A stretch of 64,000 bases of DNA from Clostridia bacterium (lineage in GTDB: Bacteria > Bacillota > Clostridia > TANB77 > CAG-465), in contig JAGAIU010000055.1 in assembly GCA_017626395.1 (NCBI GenBank), forward strand, positions 21,852 through 85,851, in the 5' to 3' direction. The notes below the pieces were generated by a model. That model saw only the letters and a list, made by a program, of their open reading frames with translations. It had not been told where the DNA came from and did not search any database. Positions 3,753 through 22,102 of this stretch are shown piece by piece (position 1 is the stretch's first letter; each line of letters opens with the position of its first letter). The position numbers and the translations under genes are program-made.

Positions 3753-4793
3753 ATGGCACATCTTGAAAGATATGATAGTTTCCAAACTAACAAAGCTAAA
3801 AAGAAAAAAGAATTAGTAAAAAATAATATAAAAAATAAAAAGAATGCTTATGATTCAACATTTATTACTACATCTAAAAAAGATATAAACGGAATAGTAA
3901 TTGAAACTAATTATAATACTGCAACAGTACTATATAACGATACTCTTATCCAAGCGGAACTAACAAAGAGTTTAAATTCAATATGTAATAAAACTGTTTT
4001 TCCTGGAGATAAAGTTGTTATTACAAAAGATAAAGATAATTACATTATCTCTAATCTTTTAAAAAGGAAAAATGTACTTTCTAGAAATAAAGCAGATAGT
4101 ACTAGACTAGCAGCAAACTTAACTGAACAAATTATAGCTACAAATATTGATGTAGCTGTAATAGTAGTATCTTGTAGTACTCCACCACTTCATCCAAAGT
4201 TTATAGATAGATATTTAATTTTACTTCAAAATTCAAATATTGAACCTATAATATGCTTAAATAAATCAGATTTAAAAACAGAAAGTGATGAAAAAGTTCT
4301 AGATATTTACAGGAAACTAGGAATTATAGTTTTAGAAACATCTACACTTTCAAATACTGGTATAGATAAATTAAAAGAATATCTAAATGGAAAACAAGCT
4401 ATATTTGTAGGTCATAGTGGTGTTGGTAAAAGTTCACTTACAAATGCTTTGCTAGATGTTGATGATATAAAAACAGGTAATGTTAGTCATAAAAGTGGTA
4501 AAGGAAGACATACTACTACATCTTCTAAATACTATAACTGGAATGAAAAATCTTCTGTAATAGATACTCCAGGAATTAGAAGTTTAGATATTTCTGACTT
4601 TTCTAAAGAAGAAATTAAAAGTTATTTTACTGAATTTAACCAATTAAATAATTCTTGTAAATATAATGATTGTATGCATGATAAAGAACCAATAGAACAA
4701 TGTGCGGTTAAAAGAGCTGTTGAAGAAGATTTTATAGATAAATCTAGATATGATAGTTATATTAGAATTATAAATGATATAGAAAATAAATAG
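3753..4793 (+). CDS. rsgA: RsgA-family circularly permuted ribosome small subunit GTPase
   Basis: NKSDL before GHSGVGKSS, GRHTTT, DTPG, C-terminal CKYNDCMH..C zinc site. Confidence 0.88.
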   Translation: MAHLERYDSFQTNKAKKKKELVKNNIKNKKNAYDSTFITTSKKDINGIVIETNYNTATVLYNDTLIQAELTKSLNSICNKTVFPGDKVVITKDKDNYIISNLLKRKNVLSRNKADSTRLAANLTEQIIATNIDVAVIVVSCSTPPLHPKFIDRYLILLQNSNIEPIICLNKSDLKTESDEKVLDIYRKLGIIVLETSTLSNTGIDKLKEYLNGKQAIFVGHSGVGKSSLTNALLDVDDIKTGNVSHKSGKGRHTTTSSKYYNWNEKSSVIDTPGIRSLDISDFSKEEIKSYFTEFNQLNNSCKYNDCMHDKEPIEQCAVKRAVEEDFIDKSRYDSYIRIINDIENK

Positions 4794-4795
4794 TT

Positions 4796-4820
4796 TAAGG
4801 AGCATATGCTCCTTATTTTT
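4796..4820 (+). terminator. intrinsic terminator
   Basis: palindrome TAAGGAGCATATGCTCCTTA plus TTTTT. Confidence 0.75.
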
Positions 4821-4870
4821 ATGTATATTTTCTCTTTAGTTAAATAAAATAATATCAGGAGGCTATATTT

Positions 4871-5329
4871 ATGTCTAAATTTAAAATATATTTTAAATCC
4901 ATCCTTATTCCTCTTTTAGTTGGTGCAATAATCGGATTTATAACTTCTGGTTCAATGGATTATAATACACTAGAAAAGCCACCATTATCGCCACCAGGTG
5001 TTTTATTTCCAATAGTGTGGACTATTCTTTATACTTTAATGGGAATATCGTACGGTATACTAAAAAGTAATTCGTTAGTAGATTCAAATATAAATTCTAT
5101 ATATTATTTACAATTATTTGTAAATGCTTTATGGTCAATCTTTTTCTTTACATTAAAATGGAGATTTTTTGCTTTTTTATGGATTTTACTATTACTTGCT
5201 TTAGTTATAACCATGACTATTAAATTTTATAATAAAAATAAAATTGCTGGTCTACTTCAAATACCTTATATATTATGGGTGGCTTTTGCTAGCTATCTAA
5301 ATTTAGGTACCTTTTTATTAAATAATTAA
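4871..5329 (+). CDS. tspO: TspO/MBR tryptophan-rich sensory membrane protein
   Basis: YxxLxKPPLSPPGVLFPIVWTILYTLMG, QLFVNALWSIFFF, LLQIPYILWVAFASYLN. Confidence 0.92.
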   Translation: MSKFKIYFKSILIPLLVGAIIGFITSGSMDYNTLEKPPLSPPGVLFPIVWTILYTLMGISYGILKSNSLVDSNINSIYYLQLFVNALWSIFFFTLKWRFFAFLWILLLLALVITMTIKFYNKNKIAGLLQIPYILWVAFASYLNLGTFLLNN

Positions 5330-5345
5330 AAAAGAAGAAGCAAAA

Positions 5346-7370
5346 TTATTTTGCTTCTTTTTCATTTTTCTTCTTAGTTGTCTTTTTTGGAGTTTTAGTT
5401 TCTTTATTAAAAGCCTCTATTGCTTCCTCTTTAGTTACAATACCTTTTTGCATTAAAAGTTTTGCAACATTCTCCAAAGATCTTCTATTTTTAACGAGTA
5501 TAGCTTTTGTCTTTTCATATGTTTCATTAACAAAAGCTTTTGTCTTTTCTCTAATATCATCTGATGTCTTATCACTAATTCCTAGTTTACTTTTAGTATC
5601 AAAAGAATAGTTTAAATAACTCTTATCCATACCATATTCCATTATGAATTTTTCAACTATAGCAGTTGCTTTTTTCAAGTCTGATGATGCACCAGAGTCA
5701 AACTCTTTTGATACAAAACTTTGTGCAATTCTTCCGCCCAAATCTACTGCTACTCTTTCTTTTAAGTAGTTAATATCTCCTGAATGTCTTTCAAACTCAT
5801 TATATTCAAAAACATTAACTCCTAACCAATGTTGAGCTGGAATAATAGAAACTAGAACACTGTCTTGATTACATTTTGTTTTTGAAAGATACCACATAAC
5901 AAAATGTCCAGCTTCATGATAAGCAGTTCTTCTCTTTTCAGCAGTTGGCATCTTTTCATATCTTTCAAAGTTTCTTCTGTATACTCTTTTTATATGTTCC
6001 ATTTTTAATTCTTTACTACCATTCATTTTAGCTACAGCCATACTCTTATCTAACAAATCAATAGACCTGTCTGGATTAGATACGTTGCTAAAACTTGAAG
6101 CACAAATTAAAATGTTATCTAACATCTTATCTGAAATTTTAACATTATGATAATTGCTTAATTTCTCTACTCTTGCTGAAATCATTGATTTAACTTCTTT
6201 AAATTTAGGTTCTTTTATTACTACTATTTCAAATCTTCTACTTAAAGCTCCATCTCTTGCAAATATTCTATTATATTCGTCTGTTGTAGTTGCTCCAATA
6301 AATACAACATTATCTCTTGCAAGTAAAGGTTTTAACGATCCAGATAAATCCGGTCCACTTCCCTCTGCAGAACCCGTTCCAAGCAAATGATGTATTTCAT
6401 CTAAAAAAATTATTACTTTATCTGTACTTTCTAAGAATTCTATAAGTCGTTGTGTTTTTTCTTCAAATTCACCTCTATATTTAGTTCCTGCTACCATACC
6501 ATTTAAATTTAATGAATATACTGTATAATCTTTAAACTCCTCAGGACAAGTTCCTTTAACTATACTATAAGTTATCGCTTCAACTATTGCAGTTTTACCA
6601 ACACCAGGTTCTCCAATTAAAATTGCATTTCTTTTAGTTTTTTTAGACATTATATTCCATACTTGGAATATCTCATCATCTCTTCCTAAAATATCGCATT
6701 TTTCAACTTTTGAAAATTCATTATTTAAGTCAGTAACAAAAGTTTTTAGAGCATCTGGTAATTGAACCTTAGATGTCGTTAATAATTTATTTGAATTTCC
6801 AACAACTTCATTTTTTAAATAGTTTAGCATTCCTTTTCCTTTAAAGAAACGTTTAACAAGTAAATTAGCTTTAGATGTTTTGTCTATTAAAATACAATAT
6901 AACAGTGTATCTAATTGGATACTCTCACGTCCAAAAGCTTTATCTACTTCTTTTGCTCTAAGTAAAGCTTGCTCTACTGTAGGTGTACATACTAAATATG
7001 GGCTGTAATCCAAATTAAAAGTTGTAATATTAGCTACTTCTTGACTCAAGTTATTTTTTAATACAATATTTATTTCTTTTGAAGTTGCTCTTTTCAACTC
7101 TATGAAATTTTCATAATCTTCTTTCATTAATTCTTCATAGATTTGTTTACTTCCCATTATAGCGATAATTAAAGCATTTGGGTCTAGATATTCCTCTGAA
7201 TTATGCTCTTCAAGGAACTCATATAACTTCGTATCCGGAAAAGTGAGTGCTGCTATAATTAAGTCTAACGAACTTACTTCTGGTTCTAACAACTCATTAC
7301 TGATACTAGCTGCAGAAATCATTGCCTCCATAACATCTCTAGAAACATTAAAATTATCATACTCTTTCAT
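5346..7370 (-). CDS. chimeric ATP-dependent protease: Clp_N repeats + ClpA/B AAA1 + FtsH-type M41 Zn peptidase
   Basis: GRDDEI, NAILIGEPGVGKTAIVE, AGTKYRGEFEE, IIFLDEIH, IGATTTDEY, DGALSRRF; then TAYHEAGH, LGGRIA, GASSDLKKAT; start at ATG 7370 with GGGAGG SD. Confidence 0.88.
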   Translation of the reverse strand: MKEYDNFNVSRDVMEAMISAASISNELLEPEVSSLDLIIAALTFPDTKLYEFLEEHNSEEYLDPNALIIAIMGSKQIYEELMKEDYENFIELKRATSKEINIVLKNNLSQEVANITTFNLDYSPYLVCTPTVEQALLRAKEVDKAFGRESIQLDTLLYCILIDKTSKANLLVKRFFKGKGMLNYLKNEVVGNSNKLLTTSKVQLPDALKTFVTDLNNEFSKVEKCDILGRDDEIFQVWNIMSKKTKRNAILIGEPGVGKTAIVEAITYSIVKGTCPEEFKDYTVYSLNLNGMVAGTKYRGEFEEKTQRLIEFLESTDKVIIFLDEIHHLLGTGSAEGSGPDLSGSLKPLLARDNVVFIGATTTDEYNRIFARDGALSRRFEIVVIKEPKFKEVKSMISARVEKLSNYHNVKISDKMLDNILICASSFSNVSNPDRSIDLLDKSMAVAKMNGSKELKMEHIKRVYRRNFERYEKMPTAEKRRTAYHEAGHFVMWYLSKTKCNQDSVLVSIIPAQHWLGVNVFEYNEFERHSGDINYLKERVAVDLGGRIAQSFVSKEFDSGASSDLKKATAIVEKFIMEYGMDKSYLNYSFDTKSKLGISDKTSDDIREKTKAFVNETYEKTKAILVKNRRSLENVAKLLMQKGIVTKEEAIEAFNKETKTPKKTTKKKNEKEAK

Positions 7371-7451
7371 AAATTTTCCTCCCTTCATTAATAAACTTCG
7401 GGTAATATATTATTTTAATCAAATAATATACTATTCTATGATGTCCCTCAA

Positions 7452-7480
7452 ATTATATAGTAGTTATTGTCATATGTCAA
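7452..7480 (-). promoter_or_regulatory. consensus sigma-A promoter of the Clp/M41 gene
   Basis: TTGACA-N17-TATAAT. Confidence 0.8.
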
Positions 7481-7518: not shown

Positions 7519-7555
7519 TTGAATTTTTATGTAAAATATGGTATAATATTAATGT
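7519..7555 (+). promoter_or_regulatory. sigma-A promoter, near-duplicate of 44311-44347
   Basis: TTGAAT-N17(TG)-TATAAT; 31/32 nt identical block with 44316-44347. Confidence 0.75.
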
Positions 7556-7608
7556 ATTTAAATTTTATGTTTTTGGTTGATTATTGCCAAAAAGAAAAGG
7601 AGAAAAAA

Positions 7609-7890
7609 ATGAAAATTGATATTTCAAAAAAGAAAAAATCTGAGGTGCTAGCTGCACTTTATAACAAATCACATCCACAAGGAATGGGATTTTTACACTA
7701 TGATCCAAAACCAATGACTGTTGAAGAAGCTGAACAACTTCTAAAAACTGAAACATATTTCGACTACTTAAAAGGTAGAGTTATGAAAATTAATTTAGAA
7801 GGTGATGTACTTGACACATGGGGGTACGATAGAGATAATGGTGAAGGTGCAGCAAAAAAAGTCATAGACTCACTTCCAGATTATGAATAA
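7609..7890 (+). CDS. conserved hypothetical 93-aa protein (VLAALYN...QGMGFL...YFDYLKGRVMK...YDRDNG)
   Basis: AAGGAG SD before ATG 7609; own promoter and terminator; the track's longer TTG start is the -35 box. Confidence 0.8.
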   Translation: MKIDISKKKKSEVLAALYNKSHPQGMGFLHYDPKPMTVEEAEQLLKTETYFDYLKGRVMKINLEGDVLDTWGYDRDNGEGAAKKVIDSLPDYE

Positions 7891-7891
7891 A

Positions 7892-7917
7892 AAAGTGGAG
7901 AAATTTTTCTCCACTTT
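7892..7917. terminator. bidirectional terminator
   Basis: AAAGTGGAGAAA/TTTCTCCACTTT inverted repeat between convergent genes. Confidence 0.75.
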
Positions 7918-7942
7918 AAACTTTATTCTTTTCAGCTTCTAT

Positions 7943-8944
7943 TTATTCATTATGAAAATTCATAAACTCTGTAAATCTATTTTGAATATTTGGCATTAAC
8001 GAATCATTTGAACAATTTAATACAATATTTATACCATCTTCACTTTCTAATTTTATAACACCATATCTACATACTGGGTATCTTCTATTATTACTAAATC
8101 TTCTGTCAGGTCCTCCAGTTTTGTTAACATATTGCCATGTATAATCAACTATATTAGAATCACTACAAACAGGTTTAGATTCTACAAATCTTGTATATGA
8201 GAAATGTGCTATCATATCTTTGTAATTCCTTCCACCAACTTTATTTAATCCTCTAAAAATTATCATTCTATCTGGTGTGAAATAAATTTTTTCTTTTTTT
8301 AATTTTAAACAATATACTTTAATATTATTTTTTATATACCAAGGCATTTTTAATTTAAGAGATGCAAAACTTCTTGTTACATTATTATCTGCTCCAGAAT
8401 TATATTTAATATTATAAACTTTAGTAGATGTATTTATTTGCCAGATTTTTTTATTTTTACATATTTCTTCCCAAAATTTATTAAGACTATTATATTTATT
8501 AGAGCTAAACTCATCAAATTCATAAGTTAAATCAATTTTCCACCTTTTAGCAATTAATATTTTTAATAAAATTCCAACAGGTATTAAATAAAAAGAAAAT
8601 AAGCATATATTAGATATAATATTAATACATCTAGTTTTATTTATTTGTTTTAATATTTCATCATCTTTTGACATTTCAGAAATATTTAAATTTTCAAAAA
8701 CTTCGGTTTCTCCTGTTATTAACTTTGTATCATAATTATACCTTACATTATTATTATCTTTTTTTCCTTCTTCTATATAAGATATTCCCGTTCCCGGAAT
8801 TGAATATGTTTGTCTAGTTCTTCCTAATGCTGTTTTAGTAACTCGATACCCTGGTATCCCCCAACTGTATCCTACACCTGATTTACTTAAGTTAATCTTA
8901 AATCCACCACCTAAATTTATACTTTTCTTAAATCTAAAACCCAT
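7943..8944 (-). CDS. DUF4236-domain membrane protein
   Basis: N-terminal MGFRFKKSINLGGGFKINLSKSGVGYSWGIPGYR; TM segment; WQYVNKTGGPDRRF; GAGGTG SD. Confidence 0.8.
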   Translation of the reverse strand: MGFRFKKSINLGGGFKINLSKSGVGYSWGIPGYRVTKTALGRTRQTYSIPGTGISYIEEGKKDNNNVRYNYDTKLITGETEVFENLNISEMSKDDEILKQINKTRCINIISNICLFSFYLIPVGILLKILIAKRWKIDLTYEFDEFSSNKYNSLNKFWEEICKNKKIWQINTSTKVYNIKYNSGADNNVTRSFASLKLKMPWYIKNNIKVYCLKLKKEKIYFTPDRMIIFRGLNKVGGRNYKDMIAHFSYTRFVESKPVCSDSNIVDYTWQYVNKTGGPDRRFSNNRRYPVCRYGVIKLESEDGINIVLNCSNDSLMPNIQNRFTEFMNFHNE

Positions 8945-9005
8945 ATTGTTCACCTCATTTTAATTATAACATAAATTTATAAAAGTAAATGAAAATTTAT
9001 TTTAT

Positions 9006-21291: not shown

Positions 21292-22102
21292 TGATACAGA
21301 TATAGATAAAATAATAAAAGATAGTATTAAAAACACTACAGTACCTAAAGAAATATTTGAAGAAACTTACGAAGCATTAGATAATAAAAAAACTAATTCA
21401 ATGTTATTTAGATATTTAGTAGGAATAGCAGCAATTATAATTGTAGTATTTTTAGTAATTACAAATATACATACAGATACTACAGACAACACTTTATCTA
21501 CTCCTGAACTTAGTGGTGAAACAGAAGCAGAGCTTCCAGTAGCCTCAGATATTATTAATACTTTAGGCGAATCATATCAGCCAACATTAGGACATATTGC
21601 CTCACCTAGTGGCTTAACTTTAGTTGAAGAAGAAGCTCAATTTGTTGGTGTAGTTAAAGTAGAAAAAATATTAGGATATACCAATTATATAAAGGGACAA
21701 AATTTATATTCTAGAACTCCTTTTATAATTTCTAAAGTATCTGTAGAAAAAGTATATAAAGGAACTTTAAATGGCGAAATCGAAATAATATCTTATGGTG
21801 GTGTAATTTCTATAAGTGATTATGAAAAAGCATTACAAAAAGAGCAAAGTTTGGATTCTAAATATAAAAATCTTTCTCCTGAAGAAAAAGAAAACACATA
21901 TATTAGAATAATAAACTCTACTACAATGAAAACTATAGAACCTGAAGTAGGAAAATATTATTTAGTATTTATGAATTATAGTAAAAATTTAGAAAGTTAC
22001 CAAGTTCTAGATGATTTAATATATGAATATGATATTAACAAAGATAAAACAAAAAATACTAATACCAATGAGTGGGAAACTTATGAATTTGGAAGAAAAT
22101 AA
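21281..22102 (+). CDS. putative single-TM anti-sigma factor
   Basis: Overlaps sigma stop; short cytoplasmic N-terminus, TM helix, extracellular domain. Confidence 0.7.
   Translation: MKLNDTDIDKIIKDSIKNTTVPKEIFEETYEALDNKKTNSMLFRYLVGIAAIIIVVFLVITNIHTDTTDNTLSTPELSGETEAELPVASDIINTLGESYQPTLGHIASPSGLTLVEEEAQFVGVVKVEKILGYTNYIKGQNLYSRTPFIISKVSVEKVYKGTLNGEIEIISYGGVISISDYEKALQKEQSLDSKYKNLSPEEKENTYIRIINSTTMKTIEPEVGKYYLVFMNYSKNLESYQVLDDLIYEYDINKDKTKNTNTNEWETYEFGRK

Follow-up and report, generated by a model that had tools for sequence, protein, structure and literature searches.

A hybrid gene and its product

On the minus strand of the 64,000-nucleotide stretch of Clostridia DNA that was analysed here (the window; positions 21,852 to 85,851 of contig JAGAIU010000055.1 in assembly GCA_017626395.1), positions 5346 to 7370 encode a protein that unites in one chain a divergent double Clp_N domain, a AAA module of the D1 type of the Hsp100 proteins with its AAA_lid_9, and a Peptidase_M41 domain. 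The open reading frame (ORF) is single and unbroken (674 amino acids, aa) and runs from an ATG at 7370 to a TAA stop codon at 5346-5348. A second in-frame ATG is located upstream at 7388 and would yield 680 aa; residues are numbered throughout in this 680-aa frame (P0001). The ATG at 7370 is the likely start of translation, because a ribosome-binding site (RBS; GGGAGG, 7378-7383) precedes it by 7 nt and the database relatives of the protein are 674 aa long. The extent originally predicted for the gene is thus borne out by the reading frame, the RBS and the length of the relatives. Further upstream, at 7452-7480 on the same strand, lies a sigma-70-type promoter-like site (TTGACA-17-TATAAT) that matches at 12 of 12 positions and that had been put forward as a consensus promoter in the original prediction, which was made by a model from the sequence only. 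The match itself was recovered; as a class, such sites are not enriched in the AT-rich stretch (16 found versus 14.5 expected in shuffled sequence), and the putative promoter role is read solely from the perfect match and the position. A search of sequencing runs listed no RNA run for the gene, only three entries with small shares. At the other end, the stop codon lies inside a hairpin (5332-5362) that has the form of a terminator on either strand and is common to the fused gene and the convergent TspO gene.

The N-terminal domain consists of two Clp_N-like repeats (residues 14-80, 7149-7349, and residues 131-200, 6789-6998, the latter including the linker to D1), separated by a family-specific insertion of variable length and sequence (residues about 81-130, 6999-7148) that is in part modelled with low confidence. 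Pfam Clp_N matched none of 24 family members at E <= 0.001, and for that reason a profile-profile comparison (hhalign) was used for this domain; in the precomputed Pfam listings Clp_N appears in about 39 of 120 clusters. The comparison with 72 canonical Hsp100 N-domains gave a probability of 98.3% (E 1.2e-14), with both repeats aligning. The assignment of the first repeat is further based on the helices of the AlphaFold2 (AF2) model, residues 12-475 of which align to residues 2-487 of ClpC, and that of the second on an alignment to ClpB1 that starts at residue 140. Of the residues that are presumably concerned with phospho-arginine in the N-domain of ClpC, the acidic position is found as Asp in repeat 2 only, from which we draw no claim.

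The large subdomain of the D1-type AAA module (residues 228-395, 6204-6707) was recognised by Pfam (AAA at residues 256-389, 53 bits), by NCBIfam, and by profile and structure comparison. It carries Walker A (GEPGVGKT, 6591-6614), the pore loop (AGTKYRGEFE, 6462-6491), Walker B (IIFLDE, 6396-6413), sensor-1 (GATT, 6285-6296) and a pair of arginines, R384 and R385 (6234-6239), which we take to be the likely arginine fingers. The AAA lid follows (residues 396-480, 5949-6203), as delimited by Pfam and by sequence and structure alignments; AAA_lid_9 matches at residues 398-483 with 34 bits and is covered from model position 4 to 91 of 104, after which M41 starts. The Peptidase_M41 domain (residues 481-660, 5409-5948) was identified by Pfam at residues 480-656 with 102 bits (cut-off 29.9), by alignment to FtsH and by structure comparison. 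It contains HEAGH (5904-5918) and GASSD (5679-5693), and the Asp of the latter (D570) corresponds in the alignment to that of TGAEND in Thermus thermophilus FtsH, which we take to be the third zinc ligand. The chain ends in a Lys-rich tail (residues 661-680, 5349-5408) that varies across the family and has low model confidence.

The composite nature of the chain is also reflected in the whole-protein models. The NCBIfam ClpB model aligns with residues 81-468 (245 bits) and the ClpA model with residues 62-463 (235 bits), in both cases through their own N-domain and D1 only, and the curated whole-protein cut-offs of 1232 and 993 are not reached. The NCBIfam FtsH model TIGR01241 aligns with residues 359-655 only and stays, at 111.3 bits, below its cut-off of 600, and a weak LonB match (20 bits) is confined to the P-loop region. 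Of the proteins with a solved structure, ClpB scored highest by sequence (186 bits, residues 140-474), followed by ClpC (184 bits) and ClpA (173 bits), with FtsH and AFG3L2 at 60-79 bits.

M41 comes directly after the D1 lid. AAA_2 and ClpB_D2-small gave no Pfam match at E <= 0.1, no M-domain was found in the Pfam scan, and the alignments to ClpB and ClpC end at chain residue about 406-424, where the M-domain of these references presumably starts. The junction falls at the lid end (residues about 470-485), which is the insertion point of the M-domain in ClpB and ClpC and the point of passage to M41 in FtsH. The lack of D2 bears directly on the idea that the protein is a truncated ClpA/ClpC-type partner that delivers substrates to ClpP, an idea that could be derived from the presence of ClpP in the genome and from one source that names a family member ClpA subunit. 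In ClpA and ClpC, ClpP docks to an IGF/IGL-type loop on D2. The fused protein, however, lacks that domain, a search by regular expression found no [IL]G[FLM] tripeptide in it, and its C-terminal face is taken by M41; we therefore regard such a partnership as very improbable. A 19-residue Kyte-Doolittle scan of the fused protein found no transmembrane (TM) helix, the maximum mean being 1.19, whereas the FtsH of the genome itself reaches 2.27 and each of 30 reference FtsH proteins at least 2.13.

Most of what had been read from the letters at the outset is upheld by this anatomy. All quoted motifs, those of the Clp-type part (GEPGVGKT, KYRG, FLDEIH, GATT, ALSRRF and PDRSIDLLD) as well as those of the protease part (TAYHEAGH, VSIIP, LGGR, GASSD and YGM), are present in the translation, and the coordinates were re-derived for six of them. 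The two Clp_N-like repeats stand, though they are divergent beyond Pfam Clp_N, and the same holds for the FtsH-type zinc peptidase with its third-ligand Asp in GASSD, for the lack of a TM helix, and for the presence of M41 in the place of the M-domain and the second AAA domain, where the end of the lid runs straight into the peptidase.

Affinities of the motor and the protease

A profile of the AAA module of the family (residues 228-478) scored 179-247 bits on D1 of all 80 Hsp100 ORFs, from many phyla, and about 0 on their D2. The same profile matched no canonical FtsH (about 30) at E <= 0.001, and with the filters off its best score there was 12 bits. The comparison supports the placement of the AAA module in the Hsp100 D1 group and not in the FtsH (classical AAA) group; a grouping with FtsH, which the original prediction had named as fatal to it, was not found. 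Of the 80 loci with conserved D1 motifs from a scan of a genome collection, 79 are ordinary Hsp100 loci, which served as D1 and N-domain references, and only L009 belongs to the family.

The trees are in line with this placement. In an unrooted D1 tree obtained by a quick search (74 rows, with 50 Hsp100 ORFs that had been scanned with NCBIfam included and the other 30 left out) the family forms one clade with a support of 100 in the Shimodaira-Hasegawa-like approximate likelihood ratio test (SH-aLRT) and a stem of 2.24 changes per column. This clade is positioned outside the ClpB-type clade, and the ClpC-type proteins are nearest by path length. Both labels are our own: the ClpB-type comprises 10 proteins above the ClpB cut-off and 3 just below it, and NCBIfam is without a ClpC-specific model. 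In the M41 tree (55 rows, of which 24 are family members and 31 FtsH) the family again forms one clade (SH-aLRT 100), with branches of 0.82 and 2.36 to FtsH. Both halves are on long branches, and neither arose recently by copying of the resident ClpC or FtsH.

A monomer AF2 model was built on 24 family sequences (mean predicted local distance difference test score, pLDDT, 81.6; predicted template modelling score, pTM, 0.59). Its residues 208-475 superpose on D1 of Staphylococcus aureus ClpC with Z 24.6 and a root mean square deviation (rmsd) of 2.0 A over 249 residues with 36% identity, and on D1 of ClpA with Z 23.8 and an rmsd of 2.2 A. Taken as one unit, residues 207-664 align with Escherichia coli FtsH (Z 22.6, rmsd 4.6 A, 421 residues), Thermotoga maritima FtsH (Z 22.6, 400 residues), AFG3L2 (Z 21.8, 421 residues) and YME1 (Z 21.7, 406 residues), and Foldseek gave a target-normalised TM-score of 0.70 for AFG3L2. 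Because D1 superposes on ClpC and ClpA, and the larger unit on FtsH-type protomers, the predicted protomer is FtsH-like in its overall shape and Clp-type in its motor. A complex prediction with four copies of M41 (residues 478-665) reached a median score of 0.35 versus a mark of 0.42 and was used neither for nor against this picture.

A patchy family of one order

The fused architecture is by no means confined to the window. Among the 120 closest clusters listed, which are 36-100% identical to the query and mostly 640-720 aa long, 119 carry both AAA and M41 in the precomputed Pfam data, and the sole exception (P0020) is a 544-aa fragment. A profile search of 1.84 billion representatives yielded 150 best matches, 149 of which could be retrieved; 100 of these carry the family-type D1 together with M41, and 89 of the 100 are at least 600 aa long. 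With members still present at the foot of the best-match list, these 100 clusters at 50% identity represent a lower bound. Two other sequences were observed that deviate from the common form. P0124 (923 aa) is a family variant with two AAA modules before AAA_lid_9 and M41, and may be either a member with two rings or the result of a faulty gene call. P0231 (694 aa) continues after its AAA_lid_9 and AAA regions with the C-terminal portion of Cas_Csd1 (182 bits), which may reflect a chimeric gene call.

The family profile identified the gene in 32 of 150 other genomes of the window's own order, each time as an open frame of about 580-770 aa. It is present in 25 of 52 other genomes of its own family and in 12 of 31 other species of its own genus, whereas within the order a second family has it in 4 of 52 genomes and a third in 3 of 33; in two more families it was found in 0 of 13. 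Outside the order, it was found in none of 145 sampled genomes of the same class. The counts are samples in which 'not found' does not equal absent, and the sampling with the family profile covered the class to which the gene belongs. All members found in these data belong to the window's order, one of small-genome gut Clostridia, in which the family is patchy and fast-evolving: in five genomes of the same genus FtsH is 75-88% identical to the FtsH of the window's genome, versus 36-63% for the fused protein. One of the relatives (G015, contig C5, L105 8050-10081) has a second, tandem copy that is split near GASSD into ORFs of 569 and 113 aa, where a frameshift, decay or a sequencing error could be involved.

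This distribution bears on the question whether the gene is an artefact or in decay. A Clp/FtsH mis-assembly might be suspected in a window that stems from an assembly of 78 contigs (1.99 Mb, 98% complete), and a pseudogene in view of the split copy of the one relative. Yet the architecture recurs in the 100 retrievable representatives and, with a full-length frame, in the 32 genomes of the order, the site is syntenic in several species, both halves are on long branches and were therefore not copied from the resident ClpC or FtsH, and the frame is intact with a promoter-like site, an RBS and a terminator. An artefact or a decaying gene is hence hardly credible and, as far as sequence evidence reaches, mis-assembly and pseudogene are refuted; the assembly chimera that the original prediction had reckoned with is contradicted by the same architecture in independent clusters and genomes.

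The conservation of the functional residues, counted over the 100 representative clusters at 50% identity, is high in both halves. In M41, H491, H495 and D570 (in GASSD) are invariant (100 of 100 clusters), and E492 is kept in 99. In the AAA module, K265 of Walker A is kept in 98 clusters, D330 and E331 of Walker B in 97 and 90, R384 and R385 of the Arg pair in 91 and 90, and a Tyr or Phe at position 304 of the pore loop in 82. The median pairwise identity between 24 members amounts to 22% for the N-domain, 61% for the AAA large subdomain, 40% for the lid and 35% for M41, making the N-domain the most variable and the AAA large subdomain the best conserved part. The latter would also suit an ATP-driven chaperone or unfoldase in which M41 serves as a scaffold for hexamerisation, without proteolysis; inactive FtsH-like proteins do exist, as in the case of plant FtsHi. 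Nevertheless, the near-complete preservation of both His, the Asp and the catalytic Glu would be unexpected for a mere scaffold, and we consider this explanation quite improbable.

Within the window the gene is surrounded by genes for PAP2, RsgA, TspO, a DUF4236 protein and TrmB. A syntenic position between TrmB/RNase R and PAP2/formate-tetrahydrofolate ligase (FTHFS) recurs in several species of the genus, and at other loci the gene adjoins RecG, Obg, PNPase or Cmk/PlsC (several of the names come from our reading of the translations, the rest from Pfam). Compared with the syntenic loci of the same genus, the window has RsgA and TspO extra between the fused gene and PAP2 (3753-5329) and, before TrmB, a 123-aa ORF without a Pfam match and the 336-aa DUF4236 protein (7519-8953). 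No conserved partner gene was found across 14 loci. The gene had been placed in an accessory-looking block; the patchiness within the genus agrees with that description, but the housekeeping neighbours and the syntenic position do not.

The same data bear on the possibility that the protein is a specialised effector or part of a conflict system, for instance an anti-phage or addiction-type protease, in which the N-domain senses a foreign or stress signal and the protease destroys a specific target. The patchy occurrence in the genus (10 of 24 in a first count and 12 of 31 in the count with the family profile), the divergence that is far faster than that of FtsH in the same five genomes, the N-domain as the most variable part and the tandem duplicate with a split copy in one genome would all fit with such a role. 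The surroundings of the gene fit less well. The best PADLOC match of the protein is a generic AAA (IetA, 26.5 bits), and of eight neighbours scanned with PADLOC four had no match and four only weak generic matches; the adjoining genes are of the housekeeping type (RsgA, TspO, TrmB, RNase R, FTHFS, RecG, Obg, PNPase), with no constant partner among them. Moreover, no family member was found in the phage and plasmid collections, where none of 50,697 phage records covered at least 80% of the query and the only plasmid match at that coverage was merely 23% identical. All in all, an effector role seems unlikely.

The genome of the window also holds ClpP with ClpX adjoining, two Hsp100 genes, MecA, FtsH and a weak Lon_C-like match. 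The fused protein adds to this standard protease set and replaces none of its members. Thus, the claim that the protein is unlike the standard Clp/Lon/FtsH/HslUV set holds for its hybrid architecture, but the protein stands beside the resident enzymes and not in their stead. Some additional protease genes were seen in passing. In the same genome, a second ClpP-like match (78 bits) with an in-frame TAA is located on contig C37 (1673-2209). A genome of the same genus (G023, contig C2:138008-139693) has, beside its normal FtsH gene, a second FtsH-like gene that is 43% identical to the FtsH of the window's genome. Most genomes in a sample of 150 from the phylum have at least two Peptidase_M41 matches, the second of which could represent second FtsH genes or other M41 architectures.

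A predicted soluble protease of hybrid build

The gene product is probably a hybrid zinc metalloprotease that is self-contained, works in the cytosol and depends on ATP. We infer its mode of action, from the hexamer and the threading to the role of the N-domain, as well as its physiological role. In the manner of FtsH, six chains would assemble so that a ring of D1 ATPases sits on a ring of M41 domains. Capture of the substrate would fall to the N-domain, as the original prediction also proposed, either by itself or via an adaptor, after which the pore loop with Tyr304 would thread the unfolded chain into the M41 chamber, powered by ATP hydrolysis at Walker B (E331). Inside the chamber, the chain would be cut at a zinc site formed by H491, H495 and D570 with E492 as general base. 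We read the protein as a lineage-specific accessory protease for a special set of substrates and not as a general quality-control protease, because the host is already equipped with ClpXP, ClpC-type ATPases with MecA, FtsH and the Lon_C-like match, and because the gene is patchy and evolves fast, in its N-domain most of all.

Several points weigh against this interpretation. The inter-domain geometry of the monomer AF2 model is a prediction. D2 is usually described as the main motor of the two-ring Hsp100 proteins, and a ring of D1 only might unfold substrates weakly. Of the 100 clusters, 18 lack the aromatic residue in the pore loop and 10 lack the Walker B Glu, and one genome (G015) holds the tandem second copy that is split in two ORFs; some family members may be degenerate or have other roles. 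Finally, in vitro hexamerisation and degradation by FtsH-type enzymes that lacked their membrane part depended on an engineered hexameric coiled coil (PMC7226402), and for that reason a hexamer should not be assumed for an M41 protein that naturally lacks TM helices.

A comparison with the known systems shows in what respects the protein is a hybrid. With FtsH, AFG3L2 and YME1 it shares, within one chain, an M41 domain with HEXXH and Asp directly after the AAA lid and a predicted protomer that superposes over about 400-420 residues. Unlike the FtsH group, it has a AAA module of the Hsp100 D1 group, no TM helices or extracytoplasmic domain, a Clp_N pair at the N-terminus, and an M41 domain that forms a separate clade on a long branch. 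With ClpC, ClpA, ClpB and ClpE it has in common the Clp_N double repeat, a D1 with the AGxKYRGEFE pore loop that is 33-36% identical and superposes with an rmsd of about 2 A, and AAA_lid_9. In contrast to these proteins, it has a single AAA ring without D2, M-domain and ClpP-docking loop, it carries its own protease and an insertion between the Clp_N repeats, and its D1 forms a clade of its own outside the sampled ClpB- and ClpC-type proteins. The likeness to Lon is a functional analogy only, in that Lon, too, combines an N-domain with one AAA ring and a protease in a single soluble chain, whereas the AAA module of Lon belongs to a different group and its protease is of the Ser-Lys type and not homologous to M41.

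The modules are thus known and the combination is undescribed: a full-text literature search, with subscription journals and supplementary files outside its coverage, returned no description of a fusion of Hsp100 D1 and M41. The databases name the family only 'AAA family ATPase [Clostridia bacterium]' and 'ClpA', and because of these generic names it is hidden by automatic annotation. Energy-dependent proteolysis in bacteria is usually taught as a closed set of ClpXP, ClpAP/CP, HslUV, Lon and FtsH. On balance, we favour the view that the family represents a further, undescribed type of bacterial ATP-dependent protease, a naturally soluble one in which a single ring of the Hsp100 D1 type, and not of the FtsH type, passes substrates to an M41 chamber while their range depends on a rapidly diversifying Clp_N-type domain, and which goes back to an old fusion in one order of small-genome gut Clostridia.

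If this view is correct, AAA+ unfoldase and protease modules of different families can be swapped in nature, and motor and protease would be interchangeable in evolution. In addition, the hybrid makes it testable whether a lone D1 ring acts as an unfoldase. It would also offer a membrane-free, soluble system for studies of the M41 chamber; for the mitochondrial relatives, work on soluble M41 proteins needed engineered coiled coils (PMC7226402). For the organisms themselves, the restriction of the family to uncultured gut Clostridia, together with its variable N-domain, suggests a lineage-specific regulatory role.

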